A DNA stretch of 63,924 nt, counting the filler, from Hausera hauseri (lineage: Eukaryota): the NCBI GenBank assembly GCA_046269625.1. It is 10 parts of 10 records of this genome, joined end to end, with 100 filler letters (N's around TTAATTAATTAA, not from the genome) between each part and the next. Parts side by side here need not be neighbours in the genome. Positions count along the whole stretch, not along the records: positions 4,578 to 17,336 come from JBJURY010016676.1; 9 more parts are not named here. One strand, written 5' to 3'. This document shows positions 1 through 31,256 of the stretch, piece by piece. Positions within the stretch are counted from its first letter, which is position 1, and the number at the start of each line of letters is the position of its first letter. The translations under genes were made by a program, and so were the position numbers. The notes under the pieces were generated by a model. The model saw only the letters and a program-made list of their open reading frames with translations. It had not been told where the DNA came from and ran no database searches.

Positions 1-1287
1 TATTGATCTATTGCTGGTTGTGTTTTTATGGCTAAAATTTTAGAGTTATCCTAGGTCTCTATCCTCATTAAATAATTTGTATCTGGCGTTAGTTTTTTTA
101 CAAAAATTTCGTTTATGTGCCTCATATATGATGCTAACTTTATCACGAGAACTCGTACAAGTTATCATGAGATTCCGTTCGTTAATTGTGTTTTGCAATA
201 TTATTTCAATACGGTCTATGTAGGGCTTTAGTTTGAATTTGGTAGGGAATTTTTTCATCCATTTCCAATAAAATACATGTTTATATATTTTTGGTTTTAA
301 CATATATGGCTGCTGATCTTGTAATGTAGGCTAGTTTTGTAATTTGGACTGAACTTCTCGATCTCCTCTTCCCTTAAGGGTGGGTGTAGTCCATAATTTT
401 GGCGTTATCATATTTTTCACAGTTCGTGGAGCAGTTATGCGTTGTTTGGCAAAAACCGGAATGGGTATGTTTGAATTAACTGAAAAAAGAATAGGAATGC
501 AGTGAGAATGTACTCGAATGGATTATTTATTTTCCCGCGTTTGGTATGCATCTAAACGGATTCTGTACCAGATGTATGGATAAGGTTTATAACACGAACG
601 AGTACCATTTCATTTAAGATAACAATAATGTGGTTGTTTTATGGGTATAGTGATGGGGTCGAGCCATATGCTGATTTCACATTTATAGGGTAATAGTTGT
701 GTGATGCGGAAATTCATGCAAGGAGGTTGTCTTGTAAGAGTGATACTGGAAAACTCAATATCATGTTCAAGAAATGGAGCAATAAAAGGGTTACGCGAAA
801 ATACATCAGAAGTTTCCAATAAGTTCATCTCCTGGTAAGTATGAACGTGAAGAATAATATTGGGCTCGCAAAGAATGAAGGTATTGTTTACCTTCAATAT
901 TACATAGTACGTGTAAGTCCTTACATAATTGACGGAGCAACAGGTTTTATTATGCATTTCAAGGATTGTGCAAACAGAGGAGACATTATGTTGTGATATA
1001 AAGACAAAACTAACCGTGTGCTGTCTCATTACAGGTAGATGAGTTCGAAGGCAAATACTGGGTTTATGTGTATCTATACTGATAATCATAGTTCGTTCAG
1101 TCAATCCAGTTCGTAGTGTAGTTGTGGTATCTAAGTTGATATCAGCGATCGTAATAGGTATTAAGAGAGCGAGGAAAAGGAGGATAAAGGTACCTAAGTA
1201 TTCATGAAAAATGAAGTGAACAGAGCAATGTTCTGAGATACTCATCGGGTGAATTTTGAGCATTGCCGCTATTTTCGGTTCTTCCAT
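1..1287 (-). pseudogene. Integrase-fused surface protein (signal peptide, two Cys-rich domains, FN3-like domain), disrupted and cut by the window edge
   Basis: Hydrophobic LGTFILLFLALLIPITIA; KTCCSVNY; WYRIRLDAYQTREN (cf. YRIRLDLYEVRPN at ~13610); KKLTPDTNYLMRIET...ILAIKT FN3-like tail. In frame with the IN GPY motif apart from point stops. Confidence 0.7.
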
Positions 1288-1329
1288 TTAGGGTATTTCT
1301 AGCTCTCTTTCATGTATGAAATTGTTTTA

Positions 1330-4300
1330 TGAAGCAGATGCTCGGGTTACTCATTGAACAGACACAGTTTCGTATTTATCGGACCCTCTCTGAACAAAAA
1401 GTGTTTGTGGGCGCACATCGACAACTTTGTACGGTCCTTGACCTGTGCGTGTTAATTTTAGCGATTTGCCTTTCTTTGCCGCGGGGTAGTGAACCATTAC
1501 ATAATCTCCAATTTTGTAAATATGTGGTCGTACCTTCTTGTTAAATTGTTTTTATATCCAGATCTATAGTTCTCTTCAAACTCCTTTGCTTCGCGTTGAA
1601 AATATTGAAGACTTCTAAGCAAATTGTGGTATTGTTCATCCATATAATCACTAGTTTACAAGGAGGATGGTAGTAATTCAGTATCCAATGGTAGCAAGGG
1701 TAGGCGTCCAAACATTAACTCAAAAGGGGAATGATTGGTACGTTTGGTAGGTGTAGTATTAATTGCGAAGGCCGTAGTTTTCAGATGATTGTGCCAATCC
1801 TATTGATCTTGAGCTACCTTTGTAGAAAGAATACCTTGAATGGTGCGATTCATCCTTTCTATTATACCATTACATTGAGGATGGTATGATGTCGTTAATA
1901 AATTTTTGCATTGAAATATTTTTGATTTTTTCAAAGAAATCGCTAATGAAGTAAAGTGCGCGATCAGTTAACAACTGTTTCGGGGTGCCTAGTACGGCGA
2001 TAATTTCATAAAAAGGCTTCAGCAAGAGTGCTACTAGTCATGTTTTTCAATGGTATCAGTACGACGTAACGGGAGAAGTAGCCAACAAGTGATAGTATGT
2101 ATTTGTATCCTAAATCCGAAGCTGGGAAAGGCCCAGAGATGTCCATTATGCACACTTCAATTGGCTTACGAGCTTCAGGTAAGCTTCCTAAAACGGTTTG
2201 GTACGAAGTCCTCTATCTTTCCTTGTAGAGCACGTTTTGCATGAAAGTATCCATCCTTCAATATGTTTATTCATTTGAGGCAAATAATATTTAGCGGTTA
2301 TATGCTTCAAAGTCTTATTTAAAGACGAATGGCCAGCTAAGTGTGAATCATGTTCTTGTAGCATGACAGCCTTGATAGCCGGTGCAGGTACCATAACCAG
2401 TTTTCGTTCTCCGACTCTTAGTCGTAAAATGTCATCTTCGATTTCTAACTTCGCTCGGTTCTTTTCATAAAACTTTTGAATGTGGTGTGATGCCGAGCCA
2501 ACTATTTGTCCATTGATTAATTGTTTGATTTGAACAATAAATGGATCTTGGTTTTGTAAGGTCTCGATGTTTCGTACTTGAATTGGCGTTGTTCTTGTAA
2601 CATATCGTTAATGATTTTTTCATTCAAATGTTTGTCACTCTCATTGTTGATTTATAAGCTGCGGCCACTATTCTTTCATATGGTATTCTCGAAAGAGAAT
2701 CGGCGTCCATGTTTTCTTTGACAGGACGATATCGGTACTCAAGATCATAATTCAAAAGCTCCAACTTCCATCTTTGGAGTCGACTTGATACATGCCTGTT
2801 GTCTGAGCGTAAAGATAATAGTGCCTTATGGTCAGTAAATATCATAAACTTATGACCGTAAACATAATATTCGTAATGTCGCAATCAATCACGGATAGCT
2901 AATAGTTCTAATTCTGTAGTTGAGTATTTCTGCTCTGCATTATTCAAGCTACGTCCGCCGTAGGCGATTACATATTCAGTTGTTTCTTCTGGATTTTGTT
3001 GAGCTAATATAAAACTAATGGCTTTAATGCTAGCGTCGGTTTTAGAATGAATGGTAGTGAAAAATCTGGGTACCTCAATATTGATGCTGACACCAATCGT
3101 TTTTTAATTTCATCGAATGCGTTCTGGATCTCTTCGGTCCATTCCCATTTTTTGTCTTTCCGTAATAACCTGTATTGAGGCTGATTAATTTCCTCAAAGT
3201 TGGGAATGAAGGTAGCATAAAATCCTCCCAATCCTAACCATGCTTTCATTTCATGCACATTGGATGTAGGGGGTATTCCAGTATTTTAGTCACTAACTCA
3301 GGGCTGGTTGATATCCCTTTACTGGAAACGACAAATCCCAGGTATCTAACCTCCTTATACCATTCGCATTTTTTTGGTTTAATTTCTATTTAGCAAGTCT
3401 GATTCGGTCGAATACTTCCTTTAATTCCGCTAAATGGGCAGACCATGTCTGGGACGTAATAAGGATATCGTCAATGTACGATAACCCTCGCACTCCTTTT
3501 AGTACTAGACGAATGAACTCTTGCAAGAAAGTGAGTGCCGTCTTTAAGCCAAATGGCACGCGTGTGAATTGATAGACCCCTGTATGGGTTTTAAATGCGG
3601 TTTTCCACCGATCCTCTTCAGCTACAGGAATTTGCCAAAACCCACTTTGTAAGTCCAATGTGACAAAATATTTACAATCCTTTAGTTCATCAATGATGTC
3701 CCGTATCCGAAGAATTGGATAAGCGTGATTCATTAAGTGCTTGTTTAAGGCGACGTAATTTACGCACAAGCGGTGTTTAGTCTTATTAGCTTTCTTGGCA
3801 ATAACTATGGGAAAGGGCCATGGTAATTGACTTGTTTCTATGATACCTTTATCGAGGATTGCCTGAATTTGTTCCTCAACTTCCTTTTGGAAGAGGGTAC
3901 CATTTTGGTATGGGTCGTCGTAACAGATCTCTCTTTTCCGGTTGTTGGGTCGAGCATAAACGACAATTTAAATTCGACCAAATGGGTTCGTCCAATATCC
4001 GTTTCGTTTTTTGCAAAAATATCAAGGTACTGACAAATGAGACCTTAAAAATTTCTTAGGTATTCATATGATAAAATTTTCTTGACTTTAGTAAGAATGA
4101 CATTAAGTGTGTCTTCAACATTATCATATTCCGCTGTTGAGACAGTCGCAACTTTGTTGTCGTATTTCTCTTGGCGTGTAGCGTCCAGTGCCTGTCCAAT
4201 TTTTGTTTTAGTGAATACCGTGACACATCTTGGAGTGAAATTTAAAACTTCTACGGGAATGGTTCCTCCAATTACTTTAACGCAGTAATGTGGTAATATG

Positions 4301-4477
4301 AGTCCGTTTCTAAGAGGTTTCGGTATGAATTCGATCACACTTTTATCTGGGAATATCATTCTGGCGTGTATGACCATTCTAGAAGTGAGTGGTATTTTCT
4401 CAACATGTCCTACCCAAATGTCTGTTTTGTTGTAGTTAGGGGGTTTATCTTCATTATTTGGACAAATTGATCCTGAT
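1330..4477 (-). pseudogene. pol: Gypsy pol (RT-RNaseH-integrase), frameshifted
   Basis: LDLQSGFWQIPV, KTAF, PFGLK, SYIDDILI (RT); FTDHKAL, RLQRWKL, ADSLSR (RNaseH); HDSHLAGH...CKTC (IN zinc finger); YHPQCNG; GPY. Confidence 0.95.
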
Positions 4478-4577: not shown

Positions 4578-7000
4578 GAATCAGAAGTAACGACGTAAGA
4601 ATCGGTATAGTCCATCATGAAAACGCAGAAGCATAGAGAATAATAGGCGCTTGCCTTCTCGAATTAGATAAGTATAGAGAAGAATGTAACTACATGAAAC
4701 AAATCATAGAATTTGTACGAGGGCCAAATCACGAATTAAAAGTAGCTCTTGAGACATTAGATGAAATAATCTATGTTAAAGCAACAATATTTAAACAATT
4801 AAGGAAGTGGATAAACTTCTTACCTTCCATAGCAGAAGTAATAAATGAAAGACTAAAAGAATTCGCTATGGTTGAGCCTATAATGAGACATCAATTGGAA
4901 GAAATGTTACTAGGTATCGCTACAATGGAAGATGAAGCTAAATCGCGAATTAAATTTGAATCATTCCGAGAACTCGAATTTATGAGCAAGGATCAAGATC
5001 AAAAAACATTAAAAGAGATATACAGTATAATAGAAGAAAAGGAATTCTATAAAAAAGAAACAAGCTAAATGATCTTCAGCGAAGTTTACTAAATATCCGA
5101 TGGGAAGGGATACAGAACCTAATGCAGAAACCGTTGAAAGAAATTTCAGCACAAAAAATAGAAACATTAGAAGTTTGTAACTATCACCGGATTGCTCTAG
5201 CGCAAACACTACAATATTTACAGAATTTAAACGAATGGACACCAGGTTTCGACCTGCATTGCCACACCGAAGTAACGGAAATTAGAAAGGAACTTCAGCT
5301 GACGTCCGACGAAGCCAAGTTCATAGGCAAACAGATGGACTCAATAGATCCGGACGCCGAAGTATTAAATCAAGCACACAAATTAATTATATTATTAACA
5401 GAAATGGCGGAAGTTGACGAGGTAGTAGCCAAACGACTAATAAATCGAATACATTTGATAAAAGAAACCCGACTACGCTCCGAGAAAAGACAGGGCGAAT
5501 TAAATGAATTGGTAAGAGAAGTAGAGGTTTACAAGAACAAGTATTCCGTTAAGGAATCTGAAATCAACGACAAAATGGAATTTATACAGAGATGGCAAAA
5601 AGACAGAATCGCAGAAATAACTAGTTATCAAGAGAAAGCTCTGATACAACCAGAAGAAATATGCCGATTAATAACATTGATGCAACAAGCGTGCTGAAAC
5701 GGAGACGTATTTAGGATATCCGTAATGAAAACATTAAAACCGCAGATAAGAGAACTACGCGAACGAGTGATGTTGGACATACGGCACTAATGAACTACGA
5801 GTTACCTGACGCAGATAATGATGCCGAGTGGGATGAATATCTTTAAGGTTTAACCGAGCAAAGTCAAAGAACCCCAATACAAATTTATGAGTCACCTACT
5901 GGTGCCCAAAAGATGAAATTTGACGTGGAAATGTTACTTGACCTTGCTCTAGCTGTAAAGAAATTGAGCGGTGTATTGAAAATAAACATAAGTGAAGATA
6001 AGTTAATGAAATTGATTCCAACTTTGACTAAACCATCCAGTGAAAATACCGTATACAGCGCCATACCCAAGCTTTTAATAAGAGATTATGCTAAATTGCT
6101 AAGAGACAAACCAGAAGCGGAACTTAAAGTGAAGGTATTATCCGAAGTAATGGACGACGAGGAATTTGATTGTACTACCTATACTACCGTTGCGGATATA
6201 AAACAGCGGATAATGGATAAGAATGATAGGGAATGAGTTAGTTATCGACTATATTTCAGAGGCAGGATATTAAACAAGCTAGAATCCTTAATAGACGTAG
6301 GGATTATACCCCACGAAGAAAATCTAATAATAGCCATATTCACCAGTGAACAAACCAAAGACGAAGCCACGAGAAAAGCACATACAGACCATTGCATTGG
6401 ATAAATCATGGGAATTCAAGATGCCGCAATGTATTTCGAATACTTACAGACTGATGAGGACAAACCGCAATATGATAAGAATTTAGTCCCGCTGAGCGAA
6501 ACCGCACCACCAATAAAAGCGAAACGGCCGGTCGGAAAACCGAGAAAAATAAAAGAGATTGACTATAACGCAGATCTGATTAGAGAATTGAGACAACTAT
6601 CAGTACCAACCCCGAGTTTGGACAACGAAGAACTAATTGAGCTAATGAAATACCTAATTAGGATAGTCAATTATACTGGACTCCAAGGTGACGTATTAAC
6701 TGAGAAAGAAAGATTAATATATAATATAGCCCAAACAATGAAGACCTCGCGATTTAAACTATTTAAAAGTACCCTCCCTGACGAAACGGTAATCGATAGA
6801 ATTATGATTGACAATACGATGGAAGAATTAAGGAAAGTCTTGATATACTTTGCAGTCAGAACTAACCCTTTCCGGGAAAACGAAATTGATAAGGCAATTA
6901 AATTAGCTAGAAAAGCTGGAAAAGGGTACCTAAAGAAATTAAATGGACTAAATTATTCGAAAAAGAGGAGGAGATAATAGGAATAAATAACTTAGAAGAC
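4578..7000 (+). pseudogene. Gag-distal accessory region: long helical/coiled-coil segment, ubiquitin-like domain and AT-hook-like motif
   Basis: E/K/L-rich helical ORF fragments colinear with 31830-34748 (e.g. ELPDADNDAEWDEY vs RLPDAGNETEWDAY; LIPTLTKPSSENTVYS vs LIPTLTKLSSENTIYS); KRPVGKPRK at 6522-6548. Confidence 0.75.
6120..6340 (+). other. Ubiquitin-like (beta-grasp) domain, frameshifted
   Basis: LKVKV...TTVADIKQRI...YRLYFRGRILNKLESLIDVGI fits the ubiquitin pattern TV..LK..I...RLIF.GK.L.D...L.DYGI. Confidence 0.7.
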
Positions 7001-8900
7001 ATGATACAAAATATCTCTCCGAATAAAGGAAACAAATCCAGTTGGTTAATCAAGTTGCTGACGATAATGACGCTATTAAAGCAGTTAGGAACAGTTACTG
7101 TATATGATTGCGATAAGTTCAAAGTGGGTCAGAAATATTCCTTAATAAACCTAGAAACATGCGAAGATGCGAGACCTCACAAGCTCGAGACAGCAGAAAA
7201 AAGATATATTATATCAACAACGTGAATTAATCGCAATGAATACAACGGAATGCATGATATAGAGATCTCGCACGGGCATTTTTCAATAATCAAACCAACC
7301 ACACCATTGATTCCGATGAATATGGATAGACAGCACTGTTTAGGAGCCCGGTTAACTGGTAGAATGGTTTGTGAAAGTATGGAATTGGAAGCTCAAGAGA
7401 GAAAAATAATTAGAGCTTACAAAGTTGCAGTAAAAAAATTAAACATGCACTGTGTCGAAGGAGAATATGACATGAAAATGAATAGGAGGAGGAATAATAG
7501 TTGTAGATTTTTACGAAACCAAGTTAAGATCTCTAAAGGCAATGTTTCATAGCGTCACTAAACTAATTACCGAAAATCAAAAATGTCACATACAAGATGG
7601 CGCTTGTACGTTCCAAAGTTCAGTCGTGGTATGGAGCCCACTTTCTAAGAGAGATAGCAATTTCATCAAAATCAAAGAGTTAAAGTTTAATAAAACAATA
7701 GGAAAACGTTATACAAATAAATTACACACAAATATTAGATTGCGGGAAGATGTTATAGAACATTCCACACCGACGATATTGATATCGGACGCACACGGAT
7801 TGAAGTTTATTAGAAAAGCTTAGCTAACGTGTTGCGATTTAGTGATGTATACCACAAATTACGAAGCATTTTTCGTAGCAGAAACTGAAATCAACATGAA
7901 AACATATGACTTAAAAACACAAGATATTATCGGATTGAAGATTACTTCAAAAACCGAGACGACTACTTCTATTACAAAGGACAGACCGAAATAGTGGAGT
8001 TATATCACAAAATGATAACAAATAACTGCAGATTAGATACTGAAGTCATGGGAACCAAACTGGCCTTAATTTATGCCAACCCAGAATTGGCATCACCAAT
8101 TATATCAATGAAAAGTGTTTCCGGACAAGTTAGTGGGGAAATCCTATTAACCGACGAGTGCGAGAAAAGAGACGTACCGATTAACGTAGAAGAGAAAAGA
8201 TGCATGCAAAAATTACCGGTCATCTATGAAAATATGCCGAGAATAGCGATACCACTCACCAGAGTATTATTGGCGAACTCAGCCGAACCAACAATACTAA
8301 AGGAATGCAAAACGAGCTAAGGCGAAACCATGTTCCGACGTAGTGGAACCGACTGGATAAGTCTATCTAATGGAGGTGTTGCCACAGACCCTAGTAAGCT
8401 AAATGGGACAAATTTAATAAACGGATTATCAGAAGAGAAGTTTGAAGACACGGCCAATAAAGGAATTTATAGACCAAAGGACATAGAAATCTATAGGCAA
8501 TTCTTAGCTTTTCCACGGCAACGAACCTCTGAGCTAAATCGGGTCATGTCAATGGTCATGGACGACACCCGCTTTCAAGAAAAATGGAAATCATTACTTG
8601 GCGCTAACCGCTATCAAAGAGTAACTTTAGAAATATTGTATAAGATTTGGGGAAGATTTCTGATTTTCGGACAAGCTGCATCGGGATTCCTAGCCATATA
8701 CTTCTTAGTCTAATTAGTTAAAGCAGTAATCCAAGCTGTTATAAACGGATATGAAATATTCACATTAACAGGATTTCTCTGAAAAATTTTGACTGCAATT
8801 ATCACCCCCGTCGGGAAAATGCTCAAGGCCTACGAAAAAAACCGATGGAAAAATGACGTGGAACGCCAATTCTCAATAGACGTAAAAATAAGAAAATAGT
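7001..8900 (+). pseudogene. env: Env-like class III fusion glycoprotein, chuvirus G-like
   Basis: Signal peptide then VTVYDCD...YSL..LETC; NCRLDTEV...LIYANPE...GEILL..C...RCMQKLPV.Y...PLTRVL; GIY...FLAFP...LN; WGRFLIFGQAASGFLAIYFLV TM and a second hydrophobic stretch. Confidence 0.8.
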
Positions 8901-9429
8901 AACACAAAAGGATGATTCAGACGATGACGAGCCTAAGGGAGGAGAAGGGAATCCTAGAACAAAGATGCATAGGATGTACTCGGTGATAAACACACCAATA
9001 CCCATCCTGCCACTAACTACGACAATATATGAAGACTGTGACCAAAAATCAGTTGTGTCGTACAGGTCTGACATCTGCCGCAAACACATTGACTATGAAG
9101 ACCCTTATGAAAAGACGAAACAATATGGGGTACTACGAAAAAAGAATGTCACCAACTAAGGATTAATAGAAAACGATCACGGAATATTGTACTCAAAAAG
9201 GATACCGCGTCACATAGAATCAAAATTAACGATATGGGAGTACCCGAAACTGTGTTCAATTTCGGGTTCACTACCCCAGGAACCGCTCATTGACAGTCGC
9301 TTTACTGAAATAACAAATAACTACTTATACCCGAACGGAGAATTGAGACAACTAAGGCAAGTATCATTTTATCGCCAGAGATAACAATAAATGGACATAA
9401 AGCCTCTACCACAAAGCAGTCAAAGACAG

Positions 9430-12400
9430 CGTCAAATTGCCGTGGGACAGTATTAGAAGGAAGACCTTTGTCGAAAATACACATCGAAGATTGGGAAGTG
9501 TATGCATTAAACGACGCAGGATCAGAAAAGTCGTATATAAAATACGAATCGATACTGACCACACTGCGGAAGCAACTATGTCCACAATTATCATCAGATC
9601 CAGGTAGCATAGGAGCATTTGGGCAAGTATCAAAGCCGAAATATAATGAACCCCTACCATTTATATAATGGGCAAAACACTTCAACATGAATTTGCAGTA
9701 ATGGATCAATTAATAGACGATGTAGTATTAGGTTGTGATATATTGAAACGGATACCGGGCATGGTAATCGATGTACATGACGGAAAGTTAGTTGAGCTCG
9801 AACCAATAAAAGGGACAAAAGTAACAAAGGAAAGGAAATCATGCGAAGTATGGATTCTGGTAGACGAGGATATTCCGACCAGAACCAAAATGATAATTTT
9901 TGCACAGATTCGTTAAAACGAAGATCTGCCGGTGTATTTCGAGCCTCAAGAGAATATCGATCCAAACCTTATGTTTAGCAACATTCTATGTAGAGTAGTA
10001 ACGGGGCGAATATCTATCAGATTAGTGAACAGTGCACCAATCCCCGTAAGATCGCACGCTAACACTACTTTAGGTCACACTTGCAGAGTATCAGCAATAA
10101 CGATAGAAAAAAAGCCATATAAGTGCGCTGAGTTTCCACCTCACGTTGAAACCAAATTCTCTCCGGAGGCGTATTGCAAATTTTACGAATTACTATGCAA
10201 AAACCGTCCGATAATCGCACAGAATGAGGAAGATATATGCAGAGCAAAAGCCCTAAGATCAACAATCCCATTAAGGAAGAAACCCTGTTCGAATGATGAA
10301 ATCCATCTAGAAGAACAGAAAATGCCCAAGTGGTATCCACCTCCCCATTCATTGAGACCGGAAATAACTAAAGAGGTAGAGCGAATATTAAAGGTCGATA
10401 TAATTCGACCAAGTTACCGATCTTGGTACTCGCCTATGCTTATGGTCAAGAAGAAAGGAACTACAAAACATCCATTTTGTATAGATTACCGGGTATTAAG
10501 CACACTGATGATGAAAGACTCGTTCCCCCTACGGTCAGTAAAGGAGGCTTTAAACAGACTATAAGGGGCGAAATGGTTTACCACTCTTGACTTACAATAT
10601 GGATACTGGCAAGTAGAAATCAAAGAAGATCGATATAAGACAGCATTTAAAACACACGATTGCGTATATGAATTTAATGTTACGCCTTTCAGCATCACTA
10701 CAGAACCAGCTATTTTTACTATAATGATGAATAAGATGCTTATTGGACTTGATCATGCTTTCCCGTATTTGGATGATGTAATGATAGCATCGAAAACAGA
10801 AGAAGAACACTTAAAAGACATTGAGGATACACTCATGCGACTAGAACAAGCAGGATTGAAACTAAATTCAAAGAAATGTAAATGGGCACAGAACGCAATA
10901 TCGTACCTCCGACACATAATTGGAGAAGGAGGATCAAAATCGGATAAATTCCTGCTGGATAAAATATCCGATTGTATGGAACTGCAGAATCAAAAAGAGT
11001 TAAGGCATTGGTTGGGCCTATGTGGGTATTATGCTACTTATGTACCGGACAAATCGAAAATTAACGCACCACTATATTGCCTACTGAAAAAGGGAACTAA
11101 TTGGAAATGGAAGGAAATGGGGCAAAAATCATTCGATGAAATGAAGAAGATTTTCACGAGCGAACAAGTCCTAAGATACCGGATTTTAATCTACCATTCA
11201 TCATTAAAACAGATGCAAGTAAAGAAGGCATAGGATACGAATTAGCTCAAAAGCGAGAAGATGAAGAACTAAAACACCCAATGGACTATGGAGGACGCCC
11301 GTTAAAGAAAGCAGAAAAGAATTATTCGGTTACCGAATTAGAAACGTTAGCCGTGAAGGAAGCACTACGACACTTTAATATCTGTCTATGGGCAAAAGAT
11401 TATAATAGTGACCGACCACAAAGCAGTTACGACATTAAAAGGACGAGCTAATAACCCAACATGTAGATTAAACCGTTGGATCGAAGAAATCTCAAGATAT
11501 AACATTGAATTCCAATACAAACCAGGTAGTAAACACGTCGACGCCGACGCACTATCAAGGTTAAAGACAAAAACAAGTGGGATTACCACAATGCAGAAAA
11601 CGCAACTCGAACTAATAATTGAACGTCAAAGAAGCCTAACTCTGGATAAAACGATCAGGATCACCGCAGAGCAAGCTAAATATAAGGTTATTCAGCAAAT
11701 TGTTGAGTTCGCACAAAACGGCAAAATACCCAAAAAGACGACAACTGAAGAAGCATCTACAGAAACACGGACATAAATACCGCGCATCGAACCTAGATAA
11801 TATTCTATATTACGAACGAAAAGGAAGAAGACTAATAGTTATTCCAAAAGGATTACAAATCGAAGTACTCATGGCCGAGCATTGGCCAAGCATTTATATC
11901 GATGTAAAGAATTGGGTAGGCACTTGCGAAGTTTGCGCGACAAAGCAAAGGAAAACAAAAGGCTACGTAGCAGAATTAAAACCCATAAGCGTACCAGATA
12001 GGCCCATGCAAGCTATGTCTATGGATATAGTGGGACCTTGCCTAAAACGCACAAAAATAACAGATATATTCTAACTTGCGTGGATCGGTTAACGCATTTC
12101 GTCGAACTGGTGACACTATTGGATCAAAAGGCAGAAACTTTAGCCGACGCAATAATAAGGAAAATCATCTGCAGATACGGACCACCAGAACAAATCTTAA
12201 CGGATAGAGAAAAGAACTTCACAAGCGAATAATTCGCAAAAATTACCAAGATATTCGAAATCAAACGTTTAACCACTACCGCGTACCACCCTCAATGTAA
12301 TGGAATGGTCGAACAAATGAACGCAACAGCCATTCATATACTATCAACAGTAGTGGCCAAAGACCAAAAGGATTGGGACAAATTCCTAGAAGGGACACAG

Positions 12401-12870
12401 TTCGCAATCAATACGACCCCACATCCAGCAACAGGATTTACACCATTCTTTATGATGTATAGACGAGAGGCAATCTTACCCATGGATCTAGGTATGACAC
12501 CGTACGAAAAGAACATCGAGGATCTAGAGCAAAACTTTTCCGAAGTCTTGCAGATAAGATTGCAAGTGTTGGGAAGTTGCTAAAACATTATCACTCGAAT
12601 ACCAGGAACAATTTAAAAAAAAATATGATAAAAAGACTAAGCCCCATGATTGGGTTTATATACATTACCCAGTCGCGAAGAAAGGTACATCCTTGAAATT
12701 AACCCGTACCGGAAGAGGACCATATAAAATCGTCCGCACAACGCCAACCACGGTCTATGTTAATAAAAACGGTAAAGAGGAAGTCGTATCAATCCAAAGA
12801 GTAGTTAAAACAGATATAAGACCAGCTAAACACTACAATTTAAGACAGCGAAACGCCAAGACCTTGTCGA
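9430..12870 (+). pseudogene. pol: Gypsy pol (PR-RT-RNaseH-IN), frameshifted
   Basis: ALNDAGS (DTG in the sister copy at ~50000) and VLGCDIL; FCIDYR, LDLQYGYWQV, YLDDVMIAS; TDHKA, DADALSR; MDIVGP, TDR, YHPQCNGMVE, GPY. The IN zinc-finger His region carries a short deletion near 11880 relative to the copy at ~18020. Confidence 0.95.
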
Positions 12871-12879
12871 TAATCACTA

Positions 12880-14301
12880 GACCGGTATCATACGCACAGA
12901 TAATAGTAGACTTATCGTTGATTGCTGTCCTAACGCCTAAGTATAACGCACAATGGTGGGTCGATGAAACTTCGTTGAGCGATATATATGGAATCAAGAA
13001 AATCAAATTAAAACCTTCACCGCCAAGGGAGGGAACTTCTGAATACAAATCGGAACAAAAAGACGAAAAATTTTTATGAGCAATAAAATTAGATTATTTT
13101 TCGCCAGAAGCTCCATGTGTAGGGTTTAGGATACCAGGACCATATGAGGGGCAAATCCAGATACTATTCCATGACCTATTAAACCAAGCCGAGTCTGATT
13201 GTAAATTCGAGCCAGAAGACGATACAATTTGCTGCAACTTAAAGTACGGACACACTTACGCCCTCAGTTATCGTTTATATTTGTCAAACTGCAATAATGT
13301 GCACGCCGAAATAAACCTGAATTCACGTTTATTTATACCACGAACTTATGGAGACTACCTTAATATAGAGCTAGAAAACATGCTCCAGTCCACCGATCCA
13401 ATAAAACGGATGCTAGAAGAAAATATAGCTAATATAACGGAAAACCAAAAGGACAACTGTATCCAAATAAACACAAAAGGACGGTTAATTAAAGGACGAG
13501 TAAACACGATTCAATTTATGAGAGAGGACAAAGCAGCTCATAATCAACAGTACTGTCAAATTGACGCCGGAAGGCCGAATAAGTGTTGTAAGTTACCTCA
13601 AAGTTATAAATATAGAATTCGGTTAGACTTATATGAAGTTCGACCGAACCAGTCGAGTATTTACCTAGGAAGTTATCAATTGGAAAGCCCAATTGGGAAA
13701 ACTCCACCTGAGATGACAAAAAGCAAAATTACGACTACAAAAACGAATATGACCACTTCTACATCCACCAAAATCATCCAAACAAGTGGTTTGTCTCAGA
13801 AGAATCTGGAAACGATTCCTATAAAATATCGGACACAGCAACATAAAATAACATTCATTGTGGAAGAAGCACTTAATTATGACATAGAAATAAGCTGCCA
13901 AACATTACATAATAACCAGAAAGTAACACTGGCTAAAGGTACCTATCAAATCAAATGTACCTACTTGAAACCCAAAACAGACTACATAATACAAATAGGT
14001 GCAGAGAACAGACAAAGTAGAACGCTTACGGTACGGACCCTAAACGAGATTGTCTTAACGAAACCACTAACTAACAAGGAAACGGAAGACAAAACTACGA
14101 CTACCACTAAAACGAAAAACCTAACTAAATGGACAACTCTCAATAATATTGATTATTGGATCGTCAACGTTTGCTCTCATAACTTTTGTTGCGTTTTTCC
14201 GATTTATTACCAAAAACTGCTGTAATAAGCGTCATAAAATCACCGAGAGGGAATTAAGGGTAATGGTACCGCAGGATGGAATCAATTATGGAGTAACCTG
14301 A
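12880..14301 (+). pseudogene. Integrase-fused type I membrane protein (signal peptide, two Cys domains, Thr-rich stalk, FN3-like domain, TM, short tail)
   Basis: YAQIIVDLSLIAVL in frame with IN; PCVGFR...ICCNLKY; CIQI...YC...KCCKLP; TTTKTNMTTSTST; YLKPKTDYIIQIGAEN...TVRT; hydrophobic segment ~14140-14210; ends ...YGVT-TGA. Confidence 0.72.
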
Positions 14302-14307
14302 CAATTA
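14299..14307 (+). promoter_or_regulatory. Putative stop-codon readthrough signal TGA-CAA-TTA (stop-CAR-YYA)
   Basis: Same context (TGA CAA CTA) at 20471-20479 and 45318-45310; matches the tobamovirus-type stop-CARYYA motif. Confidence 0.55.
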
Positions 14308-14384
14308 CAGGTCGGGTTATTCCACCATAAAACAAAGAATTGGTTCAGATTTAGAACAATACTTTGTTATAGGATATAACCTTA

Positions 14385-14399
14385 TTTTTTGTCTTTCAG
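14385..14399 (+). promoter_or_regulatory. Putative splice acceptor (polypyrimidine-TTTCAG) just before the ORF4 ATG
   Basis: TTTTTTGTCTTTCAG-A-ATG; equivalent TTTTTCAG at 20564-20571 and at 45238-45228 (minus). Confidence 0.55.
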
Positions 14400-14980
14400 A
14401 ATGGTAAGTACAGATAGCCGCATTAGTATCGACGAGTATTTACGGAGACAAGTTACAGTGTTTATTTCGAACGCAAAATCTATCTATAGAAGGATAACTG
14501 AAGCATTGCAGGCAAAAACCTATGCCGAATTTTCGAAAACCAATGAAATTCCCAATGATCTAAAAGGTATTATAGAGGAAAATCGCACAGTCTTCCTTTA
14601 CGCAATGCGCGAAGGTAACCAAGATAAAGCATATTCCCTAAAGGAATTAATCCGAAACAGACTAGCCAAAATTCAAGACATACATCCATTTAGCCTACGG
14701 AGAAATATATTATAGAATAGAAAACCAACCCTGGAACTCCAACGAAGGACATCAATACCGGTTCAGTACATTTAAAATAAATGGAAGAGGTTTAGAACAT
14801 ATCAATTACAGCCTAGAATTTAGAGTAGCTGCCCTTCCTGTCAAACTTATGATCGCAGTGACCTCCAGAGAAGATTGTAACTTACAGTTGCCGCCCTTAG
14901 AATTTGAGCAAATTCCAACTGAAACAGAAAAGGATGAACATCACCAATCATATAGACTAGTCTAAGACGGTCGCAACGTA

Positions 14981-15470
14981 AGAATCATCGCGATAAACTG
15001 TGGCAGAGAAAATGATGGATATGGAATACCCATAGAAGTATCTATTAGGGAGAGAGACGGGATCGAAATATACTCTACAATCATAAATCCCCGAAAACGT
15101 GTCCAAGAATCGTATGCGGAAGTGACCGGTTTAAGGAAAAAGCAGCTCACAGGAGGAAAGGACATTAAGCAAGTCCGTTCAGAATTGGATCATTGCCTTT
15201 ACGGTTGTATGTTAACAGGATATAACGTGCAACGATCAATCCAGCTACTAGAAATATCCGATGCAAATATTGCCGGAATAAGGGAAATGGCCACTCACCC
15301 AATAATCCAAAAACAGATGGAGAGAACCGTGCAAGGAAGAAATCATGCACGACCAACCGCTCCAAAAGTCTTCTTTAAGTTAATGATCGAAGCAATGAGC
15401 AATGACTCGAGTAGAATTCAAAGACTTTTAACGGCTAGCCAACGCTCCAAATATTTGAAAGAAATTTATA
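14981..15470 (+). other. ISG20/REX4-like DEDDh 3'-5' exonuclease fold lacking its catalytic acidic residues
   Basis: RIIAINCG...EVSI...IYSTIINPRKRVQESYAEVTGL...L..G.DIKQVRSEL...L.G.MLTGY...IREMATHP...ASQRSKYLKEIY tracks the REX4 pattern VA.DCE...RVSI...YVKP...V.DYRT..SGI...ILVGH...D...RDT...H.SVEDA.A.M.LY. Confidence 0.65.
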
Positions 15471-16463
15471 AACCATTAAAGTGGGAACATGAATGGGTCC
15501 CTAGAAACCCCTTATACAATTTACGCAGTTCCCTGAAGCCCGAACAAATAGATACAAGATATAGAAGGAATATCAAACTCTACTCTCCGACCAGAACTGT
15601 CCAGTCGATGGGCAGGCATAGTCTTACGATCGCCGTGCTAAAACCTATGGAAGGACAAGAGGAAAATAAAACGGAATTACAAACGATCGAAAAAGGAAAC
15701 AAAATACTCAATAGAACGTCAAAGTCTCTAGAAGAAAACAAAGAAGAACTGAGGCCGGAAACAATAATAAAGAAGCAGAAATTAGAAGAAAAGCCCCAGT
15801 CCAATAAAACGCAATCTATTTACAACTACTTATTCAAGAAAAAAAGAAAAGACGAGAAGCTAAAAGATGAAAACCAACAAATCGAACCAAGTACCTCTCA
15901 GAAGGTCAAATCCGTAGAGAAAAAAATCAGTGAACCTATGATAACCGAAGTCAATGTCCTTTTAGGAAAAAAGACCGAAAGAAATGTCCACTGTAAAACA
16001 ACTCAGGACTCATCAAGAATGTTAATAACCACAGAATATTGAAGTAAGAAAATGATTAAGGAAGCTATGTTCTATATCAAAGTTGTCCCAGCAAGAGAAG
16101 TTTTCGAAAACACTTATGTATGGGAAAATCCTAAGTTGGGAAATTACATTACCTCCGTCTTCCGCTCAAAAAGAACGGGAAAGTTAATAGTACCAGTAGG
16201 TAAACAAATCCGGATATTACTAAAAAAAACAGTATCAACGATATCGAGTAGAAAGGAAGATCCCGGATTTAGACCAAGACTTTATGGTGGATTGGACCCT
16301 AGTGCAAGTAAGCTGCGATCAAAGAAAAAGTTCCATTAACCCTAAGCAGAAGGTAATTCATGGATACCTTTATCAAGACGGGGATGGTCTTATATTCGAG
16401 CCTATTGAATTAACAATCCAAGTTGACTTAGATCGAGATGATTGGGACAAGGAAGAAAATGAA

Positions 16464-16593
16464 TGCCGTGTGCGATGTCAACCTGAGACAAGGCTATGTG
16501 GTCTTGGATAACAAGATTTGCCGCCACAAATACTGTCGGGATTGTTTGGAGAAGTGGACACTCGACAATGGAAAAACAACATGTCCGGTATGT
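16464..16593 (+). other. C3HC4 RING finger (frameshift within the first Cys pair)
   Basis: C.VC...CRHKYCRDC...W...TCPVC; intact in the copy at 43706-43840. Confidence 0.88.
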
Positions 16594-16815
16594 CGAGCGG
16601 AGGCTACGGATCTGGAATATTATTCTGATGGAAGTTACACCTGAGTCGTTCGTATTAAGCCCTACCACAGTTATGATCTAGAGACGAACCCTTTAATAAG
16701 CCAAACCAACCGGATTCCCAAACTGATTTACGAGAGAGGATGGATCGATTAAGGCGACCAAGGACATTAGGCGCCACCTCTTCTGACGCAATAGGCTCCT
16801 TCGAGGATGCCGCTC

Positions 16816-16827
16816 AGGGAGCAGAGA
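16816..16827 (+). promoter_or_regulatory. Polypurine tract
   Basis: AGGGAGCAGAGA followed by TGT; equivalents at 23117-23128 and 43494-43483. Confidence 0.8.
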
Positions 16828-17336
16828 TGTAATAAACCAGATTATGATTGGTGAAAATATTTTTAATTCAGACCGTAATGATTGAAATGTAAATGTAAAT
16901 TTATTTATAGGTTATTTATGAAATTGTCGGCTCATTTTAGAATAGTACTAGAATATGCGATCGTTTATGACTAACAAATAATTGTAAAAATATTTATGAT
17001 TGAATTGTAATGCAAAAGAATGCAAATATATTTAGAAATATTGTAAATAAATTAATGGAGTTCCAGACTTGCTACTATATAAGCAGATTCTAAAACGACC
17101 AAATTGAACCAGATGTGAACAGGTTAACCAGTTGTTGACCTTAAAGTCAGAATCAAATCGAATTGTGCTAATTGACGATATTAGTTATATTCGGAATTAT
17201 TCGACTACTCCTGACGTGTTATTTCTTGTGTGGAATAATGAAGGTTATTTGTATTTTGTCGTTAATATTCCCTATATAGTTTGCATCGTCTCTTAAAGAT
17301 GATTTGACTACATTAAGGGTAAAATCAGAATTAATC
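16828..17336 (+). repeat. 3' LTR, truncated by the contig end
   Basis: TG start after the PPT, AT-rich, TATATAA box near 17076. Confidence 0.75.
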
Positions 17337-17436: not shown

Positions 17437-19080
17437 AAGAAAGCCGAAAAGAATTATTCCGTTACTGAATTAGAAACCCTAGCCGTTAAAGAAGCACTTC
17501 GGCATTTTAATGTTTACATATACGGACACAAAATTATAATTTTTACTGATCATAAAGCCGTCACGACTTTAAAAGGACCAGCAAATAATCCGACGTGTAG
17601 ACTTAACAGATGGATTGAAGAAATTTCTAGATACAATATCGAATTTCAGTATAAACCTGGAAACAAGCACGTAGATGCTGATGCACTGTCGAGGTTAAAA
17701 ATTAAGACGAGTACAATTACTGTTATGAAGAAAACTCAGCTCAAGGAAATAATAGATCGCCAACGTGCCATAACACTGGATAAAGCAATTAAAATCGCAG
17801 CAGAACGAAAAAGGATAAGGTTATTCAGCAGATTATAGAATTTACAAAAAGGGACATCATACCAAAAGGATGACAACTAAAGAAACAGTTACACCGGAAC
17901 GGGCATAAATACTGTCTTAAATGGCAAAGGCAATGAAGATATTTTATATTACGAACGAAATGGAAGAAAATTGATAGTTATTCCAAAAGGTTTACGAACC
18001 GAAGTTTTAATGGCAGAACACGACTCATATTTAGCAAGACACATGTCATGGAAAAAGACATAGGAAAGTATATAGAATAAATACTTTTGGCCCAGTATCT
18101 ATATTGATGTGAAGAACTGGGTAAATGCTTGTGAGGTATGTGCGACTAAACAGAAAAAGACGAAAAATTACATGGCGGAACTGAAACTAATCAACGTACC
18201 AGATAGACCCATGCAAGCCATGTCAATGAATATCGTAGGACCCATAAGAATAATAAATATATCTTACCCTGTATTGATCGTCTAACTCATTTTGTCGAAT
18301 TTGTAGCTTTGATTGACCAAAAGGCAGAAACTTTGGCGGAGGCTGTAGTGAGAAGAATTATTTGTAGATATGGACCTCCAGATCAAATATTAACAGATCG
18401 AGGAAGAAATTTCACAAGTGAACTATTTGAGAAAATTATTAAAATATTTGAGATTGAGCAGTTAACTACTACCGCATACCATCCTCAATGTAATGAAATG
18501 GTTGAACGGATGAACGCAACCGTCATACGCATATTATCCACAGTGGTAGACAAAGACCAAAAAATTGGGACGAATTTTTAGAAGGAACTCAATTTTCCAT
18601 CAATACTATACCACATCCAGCGACAGGATTTACACCGTTATTCATGATGTATGGACGTGAAGTTGTATTGCCCACAGATTTAGGAATGACACCATACACA
18701 GTAAACCCCGAAGAGTTAGAACAAAATTTTGCAGAAGTGCTACAGACACGACTACACAAATGTTGGAAAATTGCCAAAGAATTATCGCAAGAATATCAAG
18801 AACAGTTTAAAAGCAATATGATAAGAAAGCGAAGTTAGACGATTTAGAACAAGGAAATTTGGTTTATATTCATTACTCAGTAGCTAAGAAAGGTACGTCG
18901 TTAAAACTGACTCGTACAGACAGAGAACCGTATGAAGTTGCTAAAGTTACGTCAACTACGGTGCACATCAACAAAAATGGAAAAGAAATCATATCAGTAC
19001 AGAGAGTCGTTAAGACAGAAATACGGCCCAATAAACGTTACAACTTACGACAACCCGAGACAAAAACTTCTTCAATAATT
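17437..19080 (+). pseudogene. pol: RNaseH-integrase portion of pol
   Basis: NYSVTELETLAV, TDHKA, DADALSR, HDSYLARH...CEVC, LTDRGRNFTS, YHPQCN.MVER. Confidence 0.95.
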
Positions 19081-20473
19081 ACTAGACCGATTTCATACGT
19101 TCAGATAGTTTTAGTACTGTCGTTAATTGCTTCGTATATCCCAAAGGCACAAACTCAATGGTCGGACGACGAAACTACGCTAGAAGACGTATATGGAATC
19201 CGGAAGAGCGGATTAAAACGGAAAACCGTCGTAGTGGAAAAGAAGCCAACGCCCGAAGAAATCCAAAAACCAGAAGACAATTTTTGACAAACAATGAAGG
19301 CTCAATACTTTTCGCCAGATGCTGTGTGTCGGATTCAAACTCGGAGACCACATCACGATTTTGGGAAATTCCAAGTAGTGATGCATGATAAGGCAGGGAA
19401 CGAAATCAAAAACTGTGATTTCGAACTAGGAGATTATACACAATGCTGTGACGTAAACTACGGATGCACGTAAATCCTTAATTACCAATTAAATCTAGCA
19501 GACTCACCTGAAGTCTACGTAGAAGTAGACCCAGAGCTCCAATTAATTATGCCAACATTAGCCCGACGATTCGAAATAAAACTCGACGAAATGCTACAAT
19601 CCACCGACCAAAATATAAGGCGATTAAATAAAAATATCAAAGGGATCTCAGTTAATAATAAAAAACAATGCATCCAAGTAGATGCTCGAACGGGATTAAC
19701 TCTGAGTCAAGAAATTAGCATTGTTTTCGAAGCAGTAAACGGAAAACTCCGAAAATAGAATACTGCTCTGTTCATGCCGGTGTGCAACACCTGTGTTGTA
19801 AGCTACCAGTAAACCAAGAATTCAAAATAAAATTTGACTTATATGAAGTATGACCGAATAAACCGAGCAAGCACTTGCGAACGTATTATCCAGAAAATAA
19901 AGTATGGAGAATTTCAATAGAAACGACGACCAAAAGGCCGACCACTCGAGTTAGTACCATTATGAAAATCGTTACATCAAGCCGTGTACCCAAAAGAGAA
20001 TTAGAAAGTATACCTATTAAATATTCGGCACACCGATTTAAAATTGTGTTCTTCGTAGAAAAACTAAATTACGATATACTTATAAGCTGCCGAACAACGT
20101 ATAATAATCAAATAGTAACATTATTTAAGAAGACTTACCAGACAGAATTCAATTTGTTAAAACCACAATACGATTACATAGTACAAGTATATGCAGAAAA
20201 TAAGCAAAACCAAACAATTACATTGCGTACCTTAGATGAAATTCGTGCAGAATCGCATATATACGAAAACAGACGATGAAATCACAAGCACCAATGGGAT
20301 TAACCATTTTACCGATCGTGTCCACTTTTGTACTATCAACATTTTTTCTCATTATATTAATTGCGATTTTTCGGTTAGTTGCCAAAAATTGTTATTCTAA
20401 GCGTCCTAAAACTACAGAATGGGAATTAAGGGAATTGAAAACCCCTATCGGTCCATATGATAAAATAACCTGA
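19080..20473 (+). pseudogene. Integrase-fused type I membrane protein
   Basis: YVQIVLVLSLIASY signal; Cys domains; NLLKPQYDYIVQVYAEN...TLRT FN3-like; TM ILPIVSTFVLSTFFLIILIAIF; tail ends YDKIT-TGA. Confidence 0.75.
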
Positions 20474-20587
20474 CAACTACAAAGCTGGTTATTCTATCAT
20501 CAAATGAAGAATTGCTTTTATTTCTAGACCATCCCTTATTGTAAGAGTAATCCTTACTGTTTATTTTTCAGATTAAAGAGTATTCAC

Positions 20588-22950
20588 ATGGCCGAACGAT
20601 ATAGTATCGACAACCAACCAAAAGGAACCAGTCAAAAACGTCGATATAGTATCGACGAGTTTCTTCAGAAATATGCCGCCGTCTTCCTCCCAAATTCCAA
20701 GTCCATATATCGAGAAATTCATAACGAATTGCATGAGAAAACTTTTGTGAAGTACGATCAGATTAGTAGAATTCATAACAATCTAAAAGGTATTCTGGAA
20801 GAAAATAGAACTGTCTCTCTCTACGTCATGCGAGAAGACAAGGACGCCCGAGCATACACCCTCAAATATTTATATCCACCTGGAGGACAGTGAGATATAC
20901 TATCGATTCAAATATCAAGAATGGAACGCTAAAAACGAAAGGTAATACAGATTTAACATCCTTAGCCTACGTAGCGGAAATTTATAGCACTATGAATTAG
21001 AATTTCGAGTAGCCGCCCTTCCTGCAAAATTGATGTTCGAGGTGACTTGCCACGATTACCCCTATATCCAACTATCACCTTTGAAATTCTATCAACAACC
21101 GTCAGAAAAGCATTTGGACACATTCTTACAATCGTGTAGACTAGTGCAAGATGCCCGAAATACAAGAATCATAGCAACCAATTGTGGACAAGGGAATGAC
21201 GCGCAAAGGATTCCAATGGAAGTCTCAATGCGAGAAACAAGAGAAACAGAAGTATATTGTACGATTATTAGCCCGCGAAAACGCGTTCGCGAGACATACT
21301 ACGATACGACAGGAATTCGCAAAGAAACGCTTCCGAGAGGCAGAGACATCAAACTTGTCCAGGCAGAGTTAGAACACTGCTATATGGATATATCCTAGCT
21401 GGATATCGTATCGATAGGATTATCGAGCTCTTAGAGATACCCCGCTCAAGCATCGTAGGAACGCGTGAGATAGGGACACACCCAGTAGTCGCCGAACAGA
21501 CTAAACGAATATTGCGAGAAAGAAATTACCCTATGCCAAAAGTTATGGATGCCTATTTTAAGTTAATAGTTGACGCCATGAACAGCGAACGCGTTAAGAT
21601 TAGCAAATTGTTGACTGTAAGCCAACGTACCCAATACTTACGCGATATTTATGTAGCTTTAAAATTGGACCATGAGTGGACACCCAGTAATCCAGAACAA
21701 AATTTACGAAGTCCATCAAATCCGGACACTATAAGCAAAAAGTATCGGAAGCAGTATCGTTCGTATTCCCGTGCAGAGTCGTTGAAACTATGGGACAGGA
21801 CGATATCAAAATAACTATTCACAAATCAGATAGAATGAGTACCGATTTTCCCAGCACCAGTCGTAGTTCTCATACTAAATCTAATTTACCCATCAAGAGA
21901 CCAAGTCCAAAACAGGAATCAATAATAAAGGAAATAACCACAGTTGAGACCTTTAAGGTTCCACAAGTTCCCCAAAAAAGACAGAAAATTAAGATACAAA
22001 CTCCAGCAGTTAAAAGAAAAACATCCTTCTAGGAATACTTGTTTAGGAAGAAAAACAAAGGAACGAGCTCAACCCAAGTACAAGAAGACCGAACCAGTAA
22101 AAGGAACGAAGAACCCGAAAATTCAGAGATAGCAAGAAAAATTCCAACGACATCTGCAAATAACCTGACGACAATTCAAGTTCCAGAAAAACCCAAGAGA
22201 TCGATACAGAAATACAATGACCCAAAAGGCCGATTTATACAGCTATTCACGGAAATAAATTCGCTTAGGAAAATGAACTCTCAGGTAGATGTACATTTTA
22301 CAACAACTAAAGATTACCCAAAAATGCTAGTAACTACCGAATATTATAGTCACAGGAAAATCAAAGAAGCCATGTTTTTCGTAAAGATGACACAAGCAAG
22401 AGAAGTTTATGAAAACACCTACATTTGGGAAAACTCTAAAATAGGAAAGTATATCGCCCCCATCTTTTAGTCGAAAAGAAAAGGCAAGTTAACCGTACCA
22501 GTAGACAAACAAATAAAAACCTTGCTAAAGGAAAAATATCAGAGGTATAAAAATGATGGTTAAATTCCCGATTTAGATCGAGATACCACTGCTGATTGAA
22601 TATTAGTACCAGTAGTTTATGACCCTAGAAAAAGTTCCGTAAATCATAAGCAAGATAATCCATGGTTACCTATACCAAGATAAAGAGGGTCTCATATTCG
22701 AACCCATCGAACTCATAATAGGAGTAGATTTAGACAACGAAAAATGGGATAAAGAAGAAAATGAATTCCCAGTATGTGAAGCGAATCTCAGTCAAGGATA
22801 CGTCGTTCTAGACAACCGCGATTTCCGACATAAATATTGCCGAGATTGTTTGGAAAAATGGACTCTAGACAATGGAAAAACTACATGTCCCGTGTGTAGA
22901 GCCGAGGCGACCGAATTAAAATATTTTTCGAATGGTAGTTATACCCGTGT
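20588..22950 (+). pseudogene. ORF4 (inactive DEDDh exonuclease fold ~21165-21655; RING ~22765-22897)
   Basis: RIIATNCG...EVSM...IISPRKRV...TTGI; RHKYCRDCLEKW...TCPVC. Confidence 0.72.
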
Positions 22951-23128
22951 AGTCCGAAAAAACCCCATTACAGTTATGAATTGGAAACAAATCCCCGAGA
23001 AACTCAGCCAAATACGGACTCAGAAGTAAACTTATATCGACGGACAAATCTCCTAAGACAACCACGATATGGCGTCACCTCTCCTGATGCAGTGGGCACA
23101 TCCGATGATGCCGCTCAGGGAGGAGAAA

Positions 23129-23726
23129 CGTTGTAAAGATGTCCAATGTTGTAAGATGTCCAGAAATTGTAAATACTGTTATAAGCAGCAAATACTGTTA
23201 TTGTAAATAATTATTATTTTATGATATTTTCTCATTAATGTACAAACTTAGGAATTTGTACAAATATAAAGAAGGAAATTAGTAATAATTCGGTATATTT
23301 TTAGAATTTTCGGAAAAGGCGTTGAATTTATATTAATTTTTAAATCTGAAAAATCAGTTAAAAACTGTTTATAATTCTGAATAATCAGTCACGTACGCAG
23401 TACAGTCTTGTATATATACAGCAGAAAAAGAAATTAAAAATTGTTGAGAAGTCGAAAAGTATTAAGAAGTATTGAGTTGAGAAATTAAATTGATAATTGA
23501 AAACCTTTTGAAGCCAGATTTGCAAGTTGCTAAGGATCATTGAAGTTGGGAAGCAAATTCAGATTGAATTCGAGAAAACGACTGATTTGGTTCGATACTG
23601 TGGTGTATCCAGTAATTGTTTTGTTGTAAAATATACTTATTATTTTAAAATTCTTATATAATTTTTCATTGCCCCATAAGGGTGATTAGACTACACGAAG
23701 GTCTAAAATTCTACGGTAAATTAACA
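23129..23726 (+). repeat. 3' LTR (~600 bp)
   Basis: Follows PPT AGGGAGGAGAAA; starts CGTT (TGTT with a T>C change) and ends TTAACA; TATA-like box at ~23411. The right end is inferred. Confidence 0.65.
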
Positions 23727-23927
23727 TGGTTAAGACGATAATTTTTGTTAACATTTTGCACAGAACCACAAGCGAGTACCAGTACTACTGATTAAACTAT
23801 TTCTTATAAGGCACAATCTGTCTAATCAATAACGATACACCTTACTTGTATTAAGATACTCAAATCTTAAGTGTAATTATTGTTATATAGTGGGAGTTGT
23901 ATAAGGGCCACCATAATATATAACATT

Positions 23928-23945
23928 TGGCGACCCTAGCAGGAC
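23928..23945 (+). promoter_or_regulatory. Primer-binding site of another LTR element (tRNA-Arg-like) directly after an LTR end
   Basis: ...ATATAACA-TT-TGGCGACCCTAGCAGGAC; TGG start 2 nt after a CA end. Confidence 0.6.
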
Positions 23946-24197
23946 AGATTAGTGCCTCGTTAGACTTCAGCTGAAAGTTAATTAAAACGACATACCGGCG
24001 ATGAGCGCCACTCAGATTTAACCGCCTTTGAGCGAACCGATAAGTTTAAAATACCTCTTGTGAAAACTCAAGTTAATAAGGTAAATTTTACGACTAANNN
24101 NNNNNNNNNNNNNNNNNNNNNNNNNNNNNNNNNNNNNNNNNTTAATTAATTAANNNNNNNNNNNNNNNNNNNNNNNNNNNNNNNNNNNNNNNNNNNN

Positions 24198-30702: not shown

Positions 30703-31256
30703 CTTTTCTCTTTCACTAAATCATCGTCATCTTCCGCACCGCTTACTGTACCTACATCGCTTATTCCGTTTTCTCCACCCGCCTCTCTTCCCTCTCTTTC
30801 ATCATTTCCACTGCATTCAATTTTTTCGCCTCTTTTGCTTGACTTATTCTCTTCATCATCTTCAACGTCTTCAACATAAGCAACACAGCACACTGAATCA
30901 GAAAACCTTACAAAACGTCTACCACAAAATATCGTTCAACAGCCAAGCACAAATTAATTAAATAAGGCATGCAGAGTGACATTTAGTACCTATAGTAGGG
31001 AAAATCCGTAGACGGATTACAACGACTAATAGACACGAAAATCCAACAGTCACTAAACATTTTTTGCATTTTGTCTCTTTCTGTTTTGCTTTGTAGTTAC
31101 CTTTTTGCAACGGGGTTGATATGGTGCCAAGATGTAGGACATGGCCCGCCAATTTTGACAATCGGGTCACCGTTTGGTAGTATGGAGAAAATGGGAATTC
31201 GGGCACAGACCTTCCGGGGGGGTGGTTAATCGATAAATCGATATTGCACATGTGCC

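Follow-up and report, generated by a model that had tools for sequence, protein, structure and literature searches.

A ubiquitin-like domain ahead of the gB-type envelope of a decayed Ty3/gypsy element in Hausera hauseri

Related elements and the layout of the decayed element

Burro/GYPSM1 elements of planarians are giant gypsy-like LTR retrotransposons, more than 30 kb in length, which, as described in the accessible text of a review (Arkhipova and Yushenova 2019; PMC6431247), encode Gag knuckles and, ahead of BCL-2, a Ubi2/SUMO-like motif; between gag and pol they have an in-frame env with matches to fusion glycoproteins of mononegaviruses, and they also carry MATH, BIR and ankyrin cargo. 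Tuning of host protein turnover has been proposed for the ubiquitination- and apoptosis-related part of this cargo. GAG-ENV-POL errantiviruses with envelopes of the HSV/gB type are known from Platyhelminthes, Bryozoa and Nematoda (for example, Smed_errantivirus_1-6; Chary and Hayashi 2026; PMC13524379); the main text of that paper contains no occurrence of ubiquitin, RING or accessory domains, and seven of its supplements contain none of ubiquitin. The accessible literature, PMC5053271 included, yielded nothing on a ubiquitin-like domain (UBL) or an AT-hook in such elements beyond these two sources.

The sequence analysed here (the window) is a 63,924-nucleotide stretch of DNA of Hausera hauseri (assembly GCA_046269625.1), in which 10 contigs are joined end to end with N and stop-codon spacers between them. 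Two of these contigs, copy A and copy B, carry the UBL (Table 1). Around the UBL region, 1,246 bases of the copies align at 65% DNA identity, and the predicted proteins of the two are collinear from position 4643 of copy A to approximately position 7310. In a frameshift-aware alignment, the coding stretches that precede the UBL are 35-57% identical by segment, and no significant Pfam family was found in this stretch of copy A.

Table 1. Features of the two copies of the element (positions count along the window)
Feature	Position	Strand	Comment
Copy A	contig 4578-17336	+	main locus
Copy B	contig 31401-35920	-	second locus
Degenerate Gag zinc knuckle	35535-35573	-	copy B; fourth ligand not Cys; zf-CCHC E 9e-4, 19.7 bits, cut-off 20.8
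Coding stretch before the UBL, copy A	4643..6122	+	frame changes and stops; counterpart in copy B 34112-32637
UBL, copy A	6123-6350	+	PF00240; stop codon inside at 6234
UBL, copy B	32409-32636	-	PF00240; frame open, 76 residues
Basic motif KRPVGKPRK, copy A	6522-6548	+	without GRP core
Basic motif KRPVGRPRK, copy B	32208-32234	-	GRP present, RGR absent
Domain after the motif, probably helical	6552..6960	+	~140 residues; counterpart in copy B ~32201-31790
Hydrophobic stretch before envelope ectodomain	7046..7096	+	Kyte-Doolittle; copy B 31695-31645
gB/chuvirus-type envelope glycoprotein, broken	7097..8902	+	start inferred; upstream of pol
Reverse transcriptase, RNase H, integrase, broken	10445..12292	+	Ty3/gypsy order; Pfam
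RING finger of the 3' accessory region	16465..16596	+	zf-RING_2, 31.5 bits, cut-off 27.3

Judged from its sequence, the host of the UBL is a decayed Ty3/gypsy element. Its parts follow the order zinc knuckle, ~965 codons, UBL, basic motif, helical domain, hydrophobic stretch, gB-type envelope, reverse transcriptase, RNase H, integrase and RING finger, a layout that is composite: the knuckle lies upstream of the start of the envelope in copy B, the envelope and pol are in copy A, and no contig holds all three. The envelope is matched by PF24664 (Monjiviricetes_fusion, E 1.3e-36 over 7931-8902) and pol by RVT_1 (E 5e-24), RT_RNaseH_2 (E 2.5e-19) and rve (E 4.3e-11). No Gag knuckle was found in the contig of copy A (4578-17336), and that of copy B begins ~340 nt upstream of its knuckle. 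The distance from knuckle to UBL given above is measured in copy B, the only copy with a knuckle, and replaces the several hundred residues that an earlier note on this DNA had placed between the two.

The domain that follows the basic motif is 61-63% identical between the copies, with a change of frame in copy A near 6915-6920. A two-sequence model of its open piece, which this frame change shortens, has six helices, modelled with low confidence (pLDDT 43). No Bcl-2 match for the domain was obtained with Pfam, with a PDB profile, in the ESM Atlas or by Foldseek with the pLDDT 43 model of the shortened piece; at E 0.001, Foldseek matched the same model to nothing in the viral or the PDB library, and the ESM Atlas gave no usable match of any kind. 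The hydrophobic stretch farther downstream, whose best 17-residue Kyte-Doolittle mean is 1.42 in copy A and 1.94 in copy B, is likely an internal signal sequence.

Compared by description, the element resembles Burro (PMC6431247) in its knuckle, its long accessory stretch, its UBL/SUMO-like domain and its mononegavirus-type envelope between gag and pol; in the single long frame that is inferred for it below; and in its decay, since Burro copies from Dugesia japonica are likewise described as having stops and frameshifts. It differs in that the best Pfam match of its UBL is PF00240 rather than PF11976, and in that it has one degenerate knuckle, near the start of a partial contig, instead of two to three; the position of BCL-2 in Burro is occupied by the conserved, probably helical domain. 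Burro-type MATH, BIR and ankyrin motifs were absent from the frames and pieces scanned of these partial contigs. With its envelope upstream of reverse transcriptase, RNase H and integrase, the element matches in class the GAG-ENV-POL elements of gB type (PMC13524379) as well as Burro (PMC6431247). It shares with the former a Ty3/gypsy pol preceded by a gB/chuvirus-type envelope, and the order of envelope motifs is, by eye, the same as in the errantiviruses of Schmidtea; those elements are intact whereas the present copies are dead, and the likeness is one of layout rather than of placement in a tree (PMC13524379).

Copy A is interrupted by stops at 6234, inside the UBL, and at 6402, and copy B by a stop at 32342. 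Along the path of the frameshift-aware alignment, none of the 11 stops and none of the 9 frame changes is common to both copies, which suggests that one ancestral frame was open from Gag through the start of the envelope (its knuckle-proximal part being present in one copy only) and that the two copies decayed independently. An alternative genetic code was rejected, as stops of all three kinds occur, unshared and with frameshifts alongside; decay of the methylation or RIP type is not indicated by the CpG observed/expected ratios (1.08 and 1.29) or by TpA, which is not enriched.

Two sibling copies, also decayed, occupy contigs 17437-24097 (+), which spans RNase H to the 3' accessory region, and 42219-51449 (-), which runs from the C-terminus of the envelope across pol into the accessory frames; both are ~67-73% identical to copy A in the DNA of pol. 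A search for LTRs returned short 3' matches only, between sibling contigs, and the contigs of copies A and B both lack the 5' end of the element. Between the protease region and reverse transcriptase of copy A, a stretch at ~9830-10080 (+) appears by eye to be degenerate and dUTPase-like, with no Pfam match; the dUTPase of Burro has the same position (PMC6431247). An accessory frame after the integrase (12700-14300, +) is conserved in three contigs at 35-49% identity and has no significant Pfam family; by eye it resembles a surface protein rich in beta structure, hydrophobic at its end, in which a fibronectin-III-like stretch and a linker rich in Thr can be made out. A second accessory frame (14966-16600, +), conserved in sibling contigs, ends in a C3HC4-type RING. 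Two other, more distant retroelements are found at 1-4477 (-; RVT_1 at 3389-3967) and at 24198-31300 (+), the latter with RNase H and an integrase zinc domain at 28954-30053. Contigs 36021-42118 and 51550-55539 share a 106-base match (77% identity) that has no relation to the element, and the region ~42240-42450 (-) resembles by eye the C-terminal exon of what we take to be a cytochrome P450 host gene.

Identity and conservation of the ubiquitin-like domain

The earlier note had seen a ubiquitin pattern in both copies and proposed a search of the PF00240 clan as a check. Taken in isolation, the UBL of copy A (with X at the stop) scores 25.4 bits against PF00240 (E 1.2e-5), exactly at the cut-off of 25.4, and that of copy B 23.5 bits (E 4.9e-5), just under it, so that a match to the ubiquitin clan was obtained in both; the scores of both drop to 21-22 bits when the domains are searched in longer context. 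Further searches agree. In the ESM Atlas, the UBL of copy B lies nearest a PF00240 cluster (0.93), and all ten of its ten best family-bearing matches fall in one family or clan. A profile of the two copies had 80 matches among 1.84 billion proteins, every one centred on the UBL part, and the 15 of these that were examined are ubiquitin or multi-UBL repeat proteins; because many of the scores sum over repeats, they overstate the similarity of a single domain. Of 66 PDB matches for the UBL profile, the 60 listed are all ubiquitin, ubiquitin-derived or UBL proteins, FAT10, ISG15, ubiquilin and RAD23B among them. A ubiquitin HMM built from the matches hit the two UBLs (copy A, iE 7.6e-7) and no other place in the six frames of the window, and nothing in its reversed frames, implying one UBL per copy; a tandem second UBL, sought with the same HMM in the six frames, was not found. 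A single-sequence structure model of the block in copy B had a pLDDT of 35, too low for its fold to be read. On these matches, the segment in both copies is identified as a ubiquitin-like domain of the ubiquitin clan.

Identities to ubiquitin number 14 of 76 residues in copy A and 16 of 76 in copy B. Core residues are retained, whereas the surface positions L8, I44 and H68 and the tail are unlike ubiquitin. In both copies, L8 of ubiquitin aligns to E, I44 to Y and V70 to I or V, the assignment of L8 depending on the ungapped alignment of the first hairpin, which is less surely aligned than the rest; the A46 and K63 positions hold R and P, and R42, G47 and K27 are retained. In 497 ubiquitin and UBL units, Tyr does not rank among the six residues most often found at position 44. 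As the earlier note had observed, there is no Gly-Gly at the end of the UBL, where ubiquitin positions 75-76 align to SE in copy A and to NE in copy B; its proposal of an integral, non-cleavable UBL is supported by this lack together with the UBL matches, within what was probably a single long frame. Without Gly-Gly, and without the L8-I44-V70 patch of ubiquitin, the UBL is predicted to be neither a conjugatable ubiquitin nor a type I UBL.

Comparison of the two copies shows past purifying selection on the UBL (dN 0.43, dS 2.15, ratio 0.20). Differences are mostly at third codon positions, and dN ranges from 0.17 to 0.43, with synonymous sites near or at saturation between the copies. The UBL is nevertheless the least conserved part of its block, at 41% identity as against 52-73% in the three segments that follow. 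The best-conserved segment, at 73% identity and thus above both the UBL and the basic motif, is the linker after the UBL (6351-6500 in copy A; 32408-32260 in copy B), which belongs to no assigned family and may form the functional core of the block.

Relatives covering the flanks of the UBL were not found in protein homology searches with the UBL of copy B among longer proteins, with the two-copy alignment or with the C-terminal region of the envelope (the last taking in proteins of 910-2595 aa); the scan of 1.84 billion proteins with the two-copy profile gave UBL-centred matches only, and a search for related loci confirmed 0 of 118 metagenome and 0 of 303 viral contig pattern matches. All conclusions therefore rest on the two copies. 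Matches to ERK2 at E 0.4-0.6 were taken as chance.

The basic motif downstream of the domain

AT-hooks have a GRP core, and a central RGR is important in them; the HMGA consensus is TPKRPRGRPKK, and non-canonical hooks exist, according to the accessible text of PMC11354804. The motif KRPVG(K/R)PRK, which had been noted earlier at ~60 residues after the UBL, is present in both copies and begins 57-58 codons past the aligned end of the UBL. Like the hooks of HMGA, it has a G-R/K-P centre flanked by Pro and by basic residues; it differs from them (PMC11354804) in being single and in its centre, which is VGK in copy A and VGR in copy B, so that neither copy has RGR and only copy B has GRP. Eight of the nine residues are the same in both copies, six of them through synonymous codon changes, and the motif is therefore probably constrained, although P is only ~0.05 when its conservation is set against the local identity of 57%.

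The AT-hook that the earlier note recognised here is not confirmed as such: neither motif region is matched by a Pfam family up to an E-value of 10 (with HMMER filters that discard weak matches), the centre is GKP in copy A, and RGR is in neither copy. The motif is best called, on its sequence, a basic, AT-hook-like patch, and it was likely a patch for targeting or for weak binding of nucleic acid and not a canonical AT-hook. A working AT-hook, tethering the UBL-bearing protein to AT-rich chromatin as the earlier note supposed, would be consistent with the retention of the motif inside a linker that has indels and with its resemblance to the HMGA consensus, non-canonical hooks being on record (PMC11354804). 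Such a tether is improbable, with a core that is incomplete (V stands for the first R of RGR in both copies and K for the second in copy A), a single motif that Pfam does not recognise, a lone GRP with basic flanks arising by chance 0.55 times per shuffled window, and a protein that would initially be joined to a likely membrane signal. The weak AT-hook-like motif is the only unreported feature of the locus; AT-hooks have no occurrence in the accessible text of the Burro review (PMC6431247), and the original Burro paper or its supplements may mention one.

Candidate roles of the ubiquitin-like domain

The reading that we prefer, at a probability of about 0.45, is that the UBL, a domain of host type that lacks Gly-Gly and became established between the knuckle of Gag and the envelope of a now dead Ty3/gypsy element, would have been a non-conjugatable docking module for proteins of the host ubiquitin pathway. 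One ancestral polyprotein would have carried the UBL block, which, lying ahead of the likely signal sequence of the envelope, would stay cytosolic; the element protease and signal peptidase would release the block as an accessory protein, and the UBL would then tune the turnover of host proteins as an adaptor or a decoy, in the way that has been proposed for the cargo of Burro.

The low conservation of the UBL within its block counts against docking, since a merely structural domain would account for it too. A role limited to the structure or folding of the polyprotein, or to contacts with the element's own proteins without any host partner, accords with the UBL diverging fastest and with a core that is kept while the surface positions and tail depart from ubiquitin; coronavirus nsp3 has integral UBLs whose binding partners are proteins of the virus itself. 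The UBL lies, however, at the position of the cluster of ubiquitination- and apoptosis-related domains in Burro (PMC6431247), which together with the RING of the element indicates dealings with host pathways, and a purely structural role is on balance unlikely. The suggestion of the earlier note that the UBL, fused to Gag, substitutes for a late domain by recruiting ESCRT for budding has a precedent in engineered fusions, in which ubiquitin without Gly-Gly rescues budding when fused to Gag, provided that L8 and I44 are present (accessible text of PMC2958808). The element likewise has a Gly-Gly-less ubiquitin-type domain, probably in one chain with Gag; it has an envelope; neither copy shows PTAP/PSAP, PPxY or YPxL in any frame of the sequence available ahead of its envelope, from which the Gag N-terminus is missing; and the Tyr at the I44 position is still hydrophobic. 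The fusions, however, carried authentic ubiquitin, whereas the UBL of the element is divergent, with few ubiquitin residues, and far from the knuckle; the role is disfavoured because the two residues required in the fusions (PMC2958808) align to E and to Y, the latter not among the commonest at its position, and we consider it improbable. Recruitment of the proteasome, which the earlier note also suggested, would be a further candidate role.

Two further proposals involve the RING finger. That the UBL and the element's own RING together form a two-part ubiquitin ligase is very improbable: the RING is on the same contig as the UBL of copy A, but lies ~10 kb downstream of it, past the integrase, whereas in Parkin and UHRF1, where a UBL and a RING cooperate, both domains are in one chain. 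Decidedly improbable, too, is a scheme in which the UBL and a non-canonical AT-hook make up a chromatin- or RNA-tethered ubiquitin adaptor within a Gag-Env polyprotein, the remodelled UBL, with Tyr at the Ile44 position, recruiting or decoying host ubiquitin/SUMO silencing factors, perhaps with the RING of the element.

Published work accounts for most of the finding: a Ubi/SUMO-like domain before an in-frame envelope has already been described for planarian Burro (PMC6431247). With the H. hauseri copies, the Burro-type layout, in which a host-derived UBL stands between Gag and a gB-type envelope in the same frame, extends to another lineage that is distant in sequence, and comparison of the copies shows past purifying selection on such a UBL. 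In copy B, the 76-residue domain is naturally open and can be assayed by itself. Should the basic motif bind nucleic acid, the block would represent a transposon-encoded targeting adaptor.
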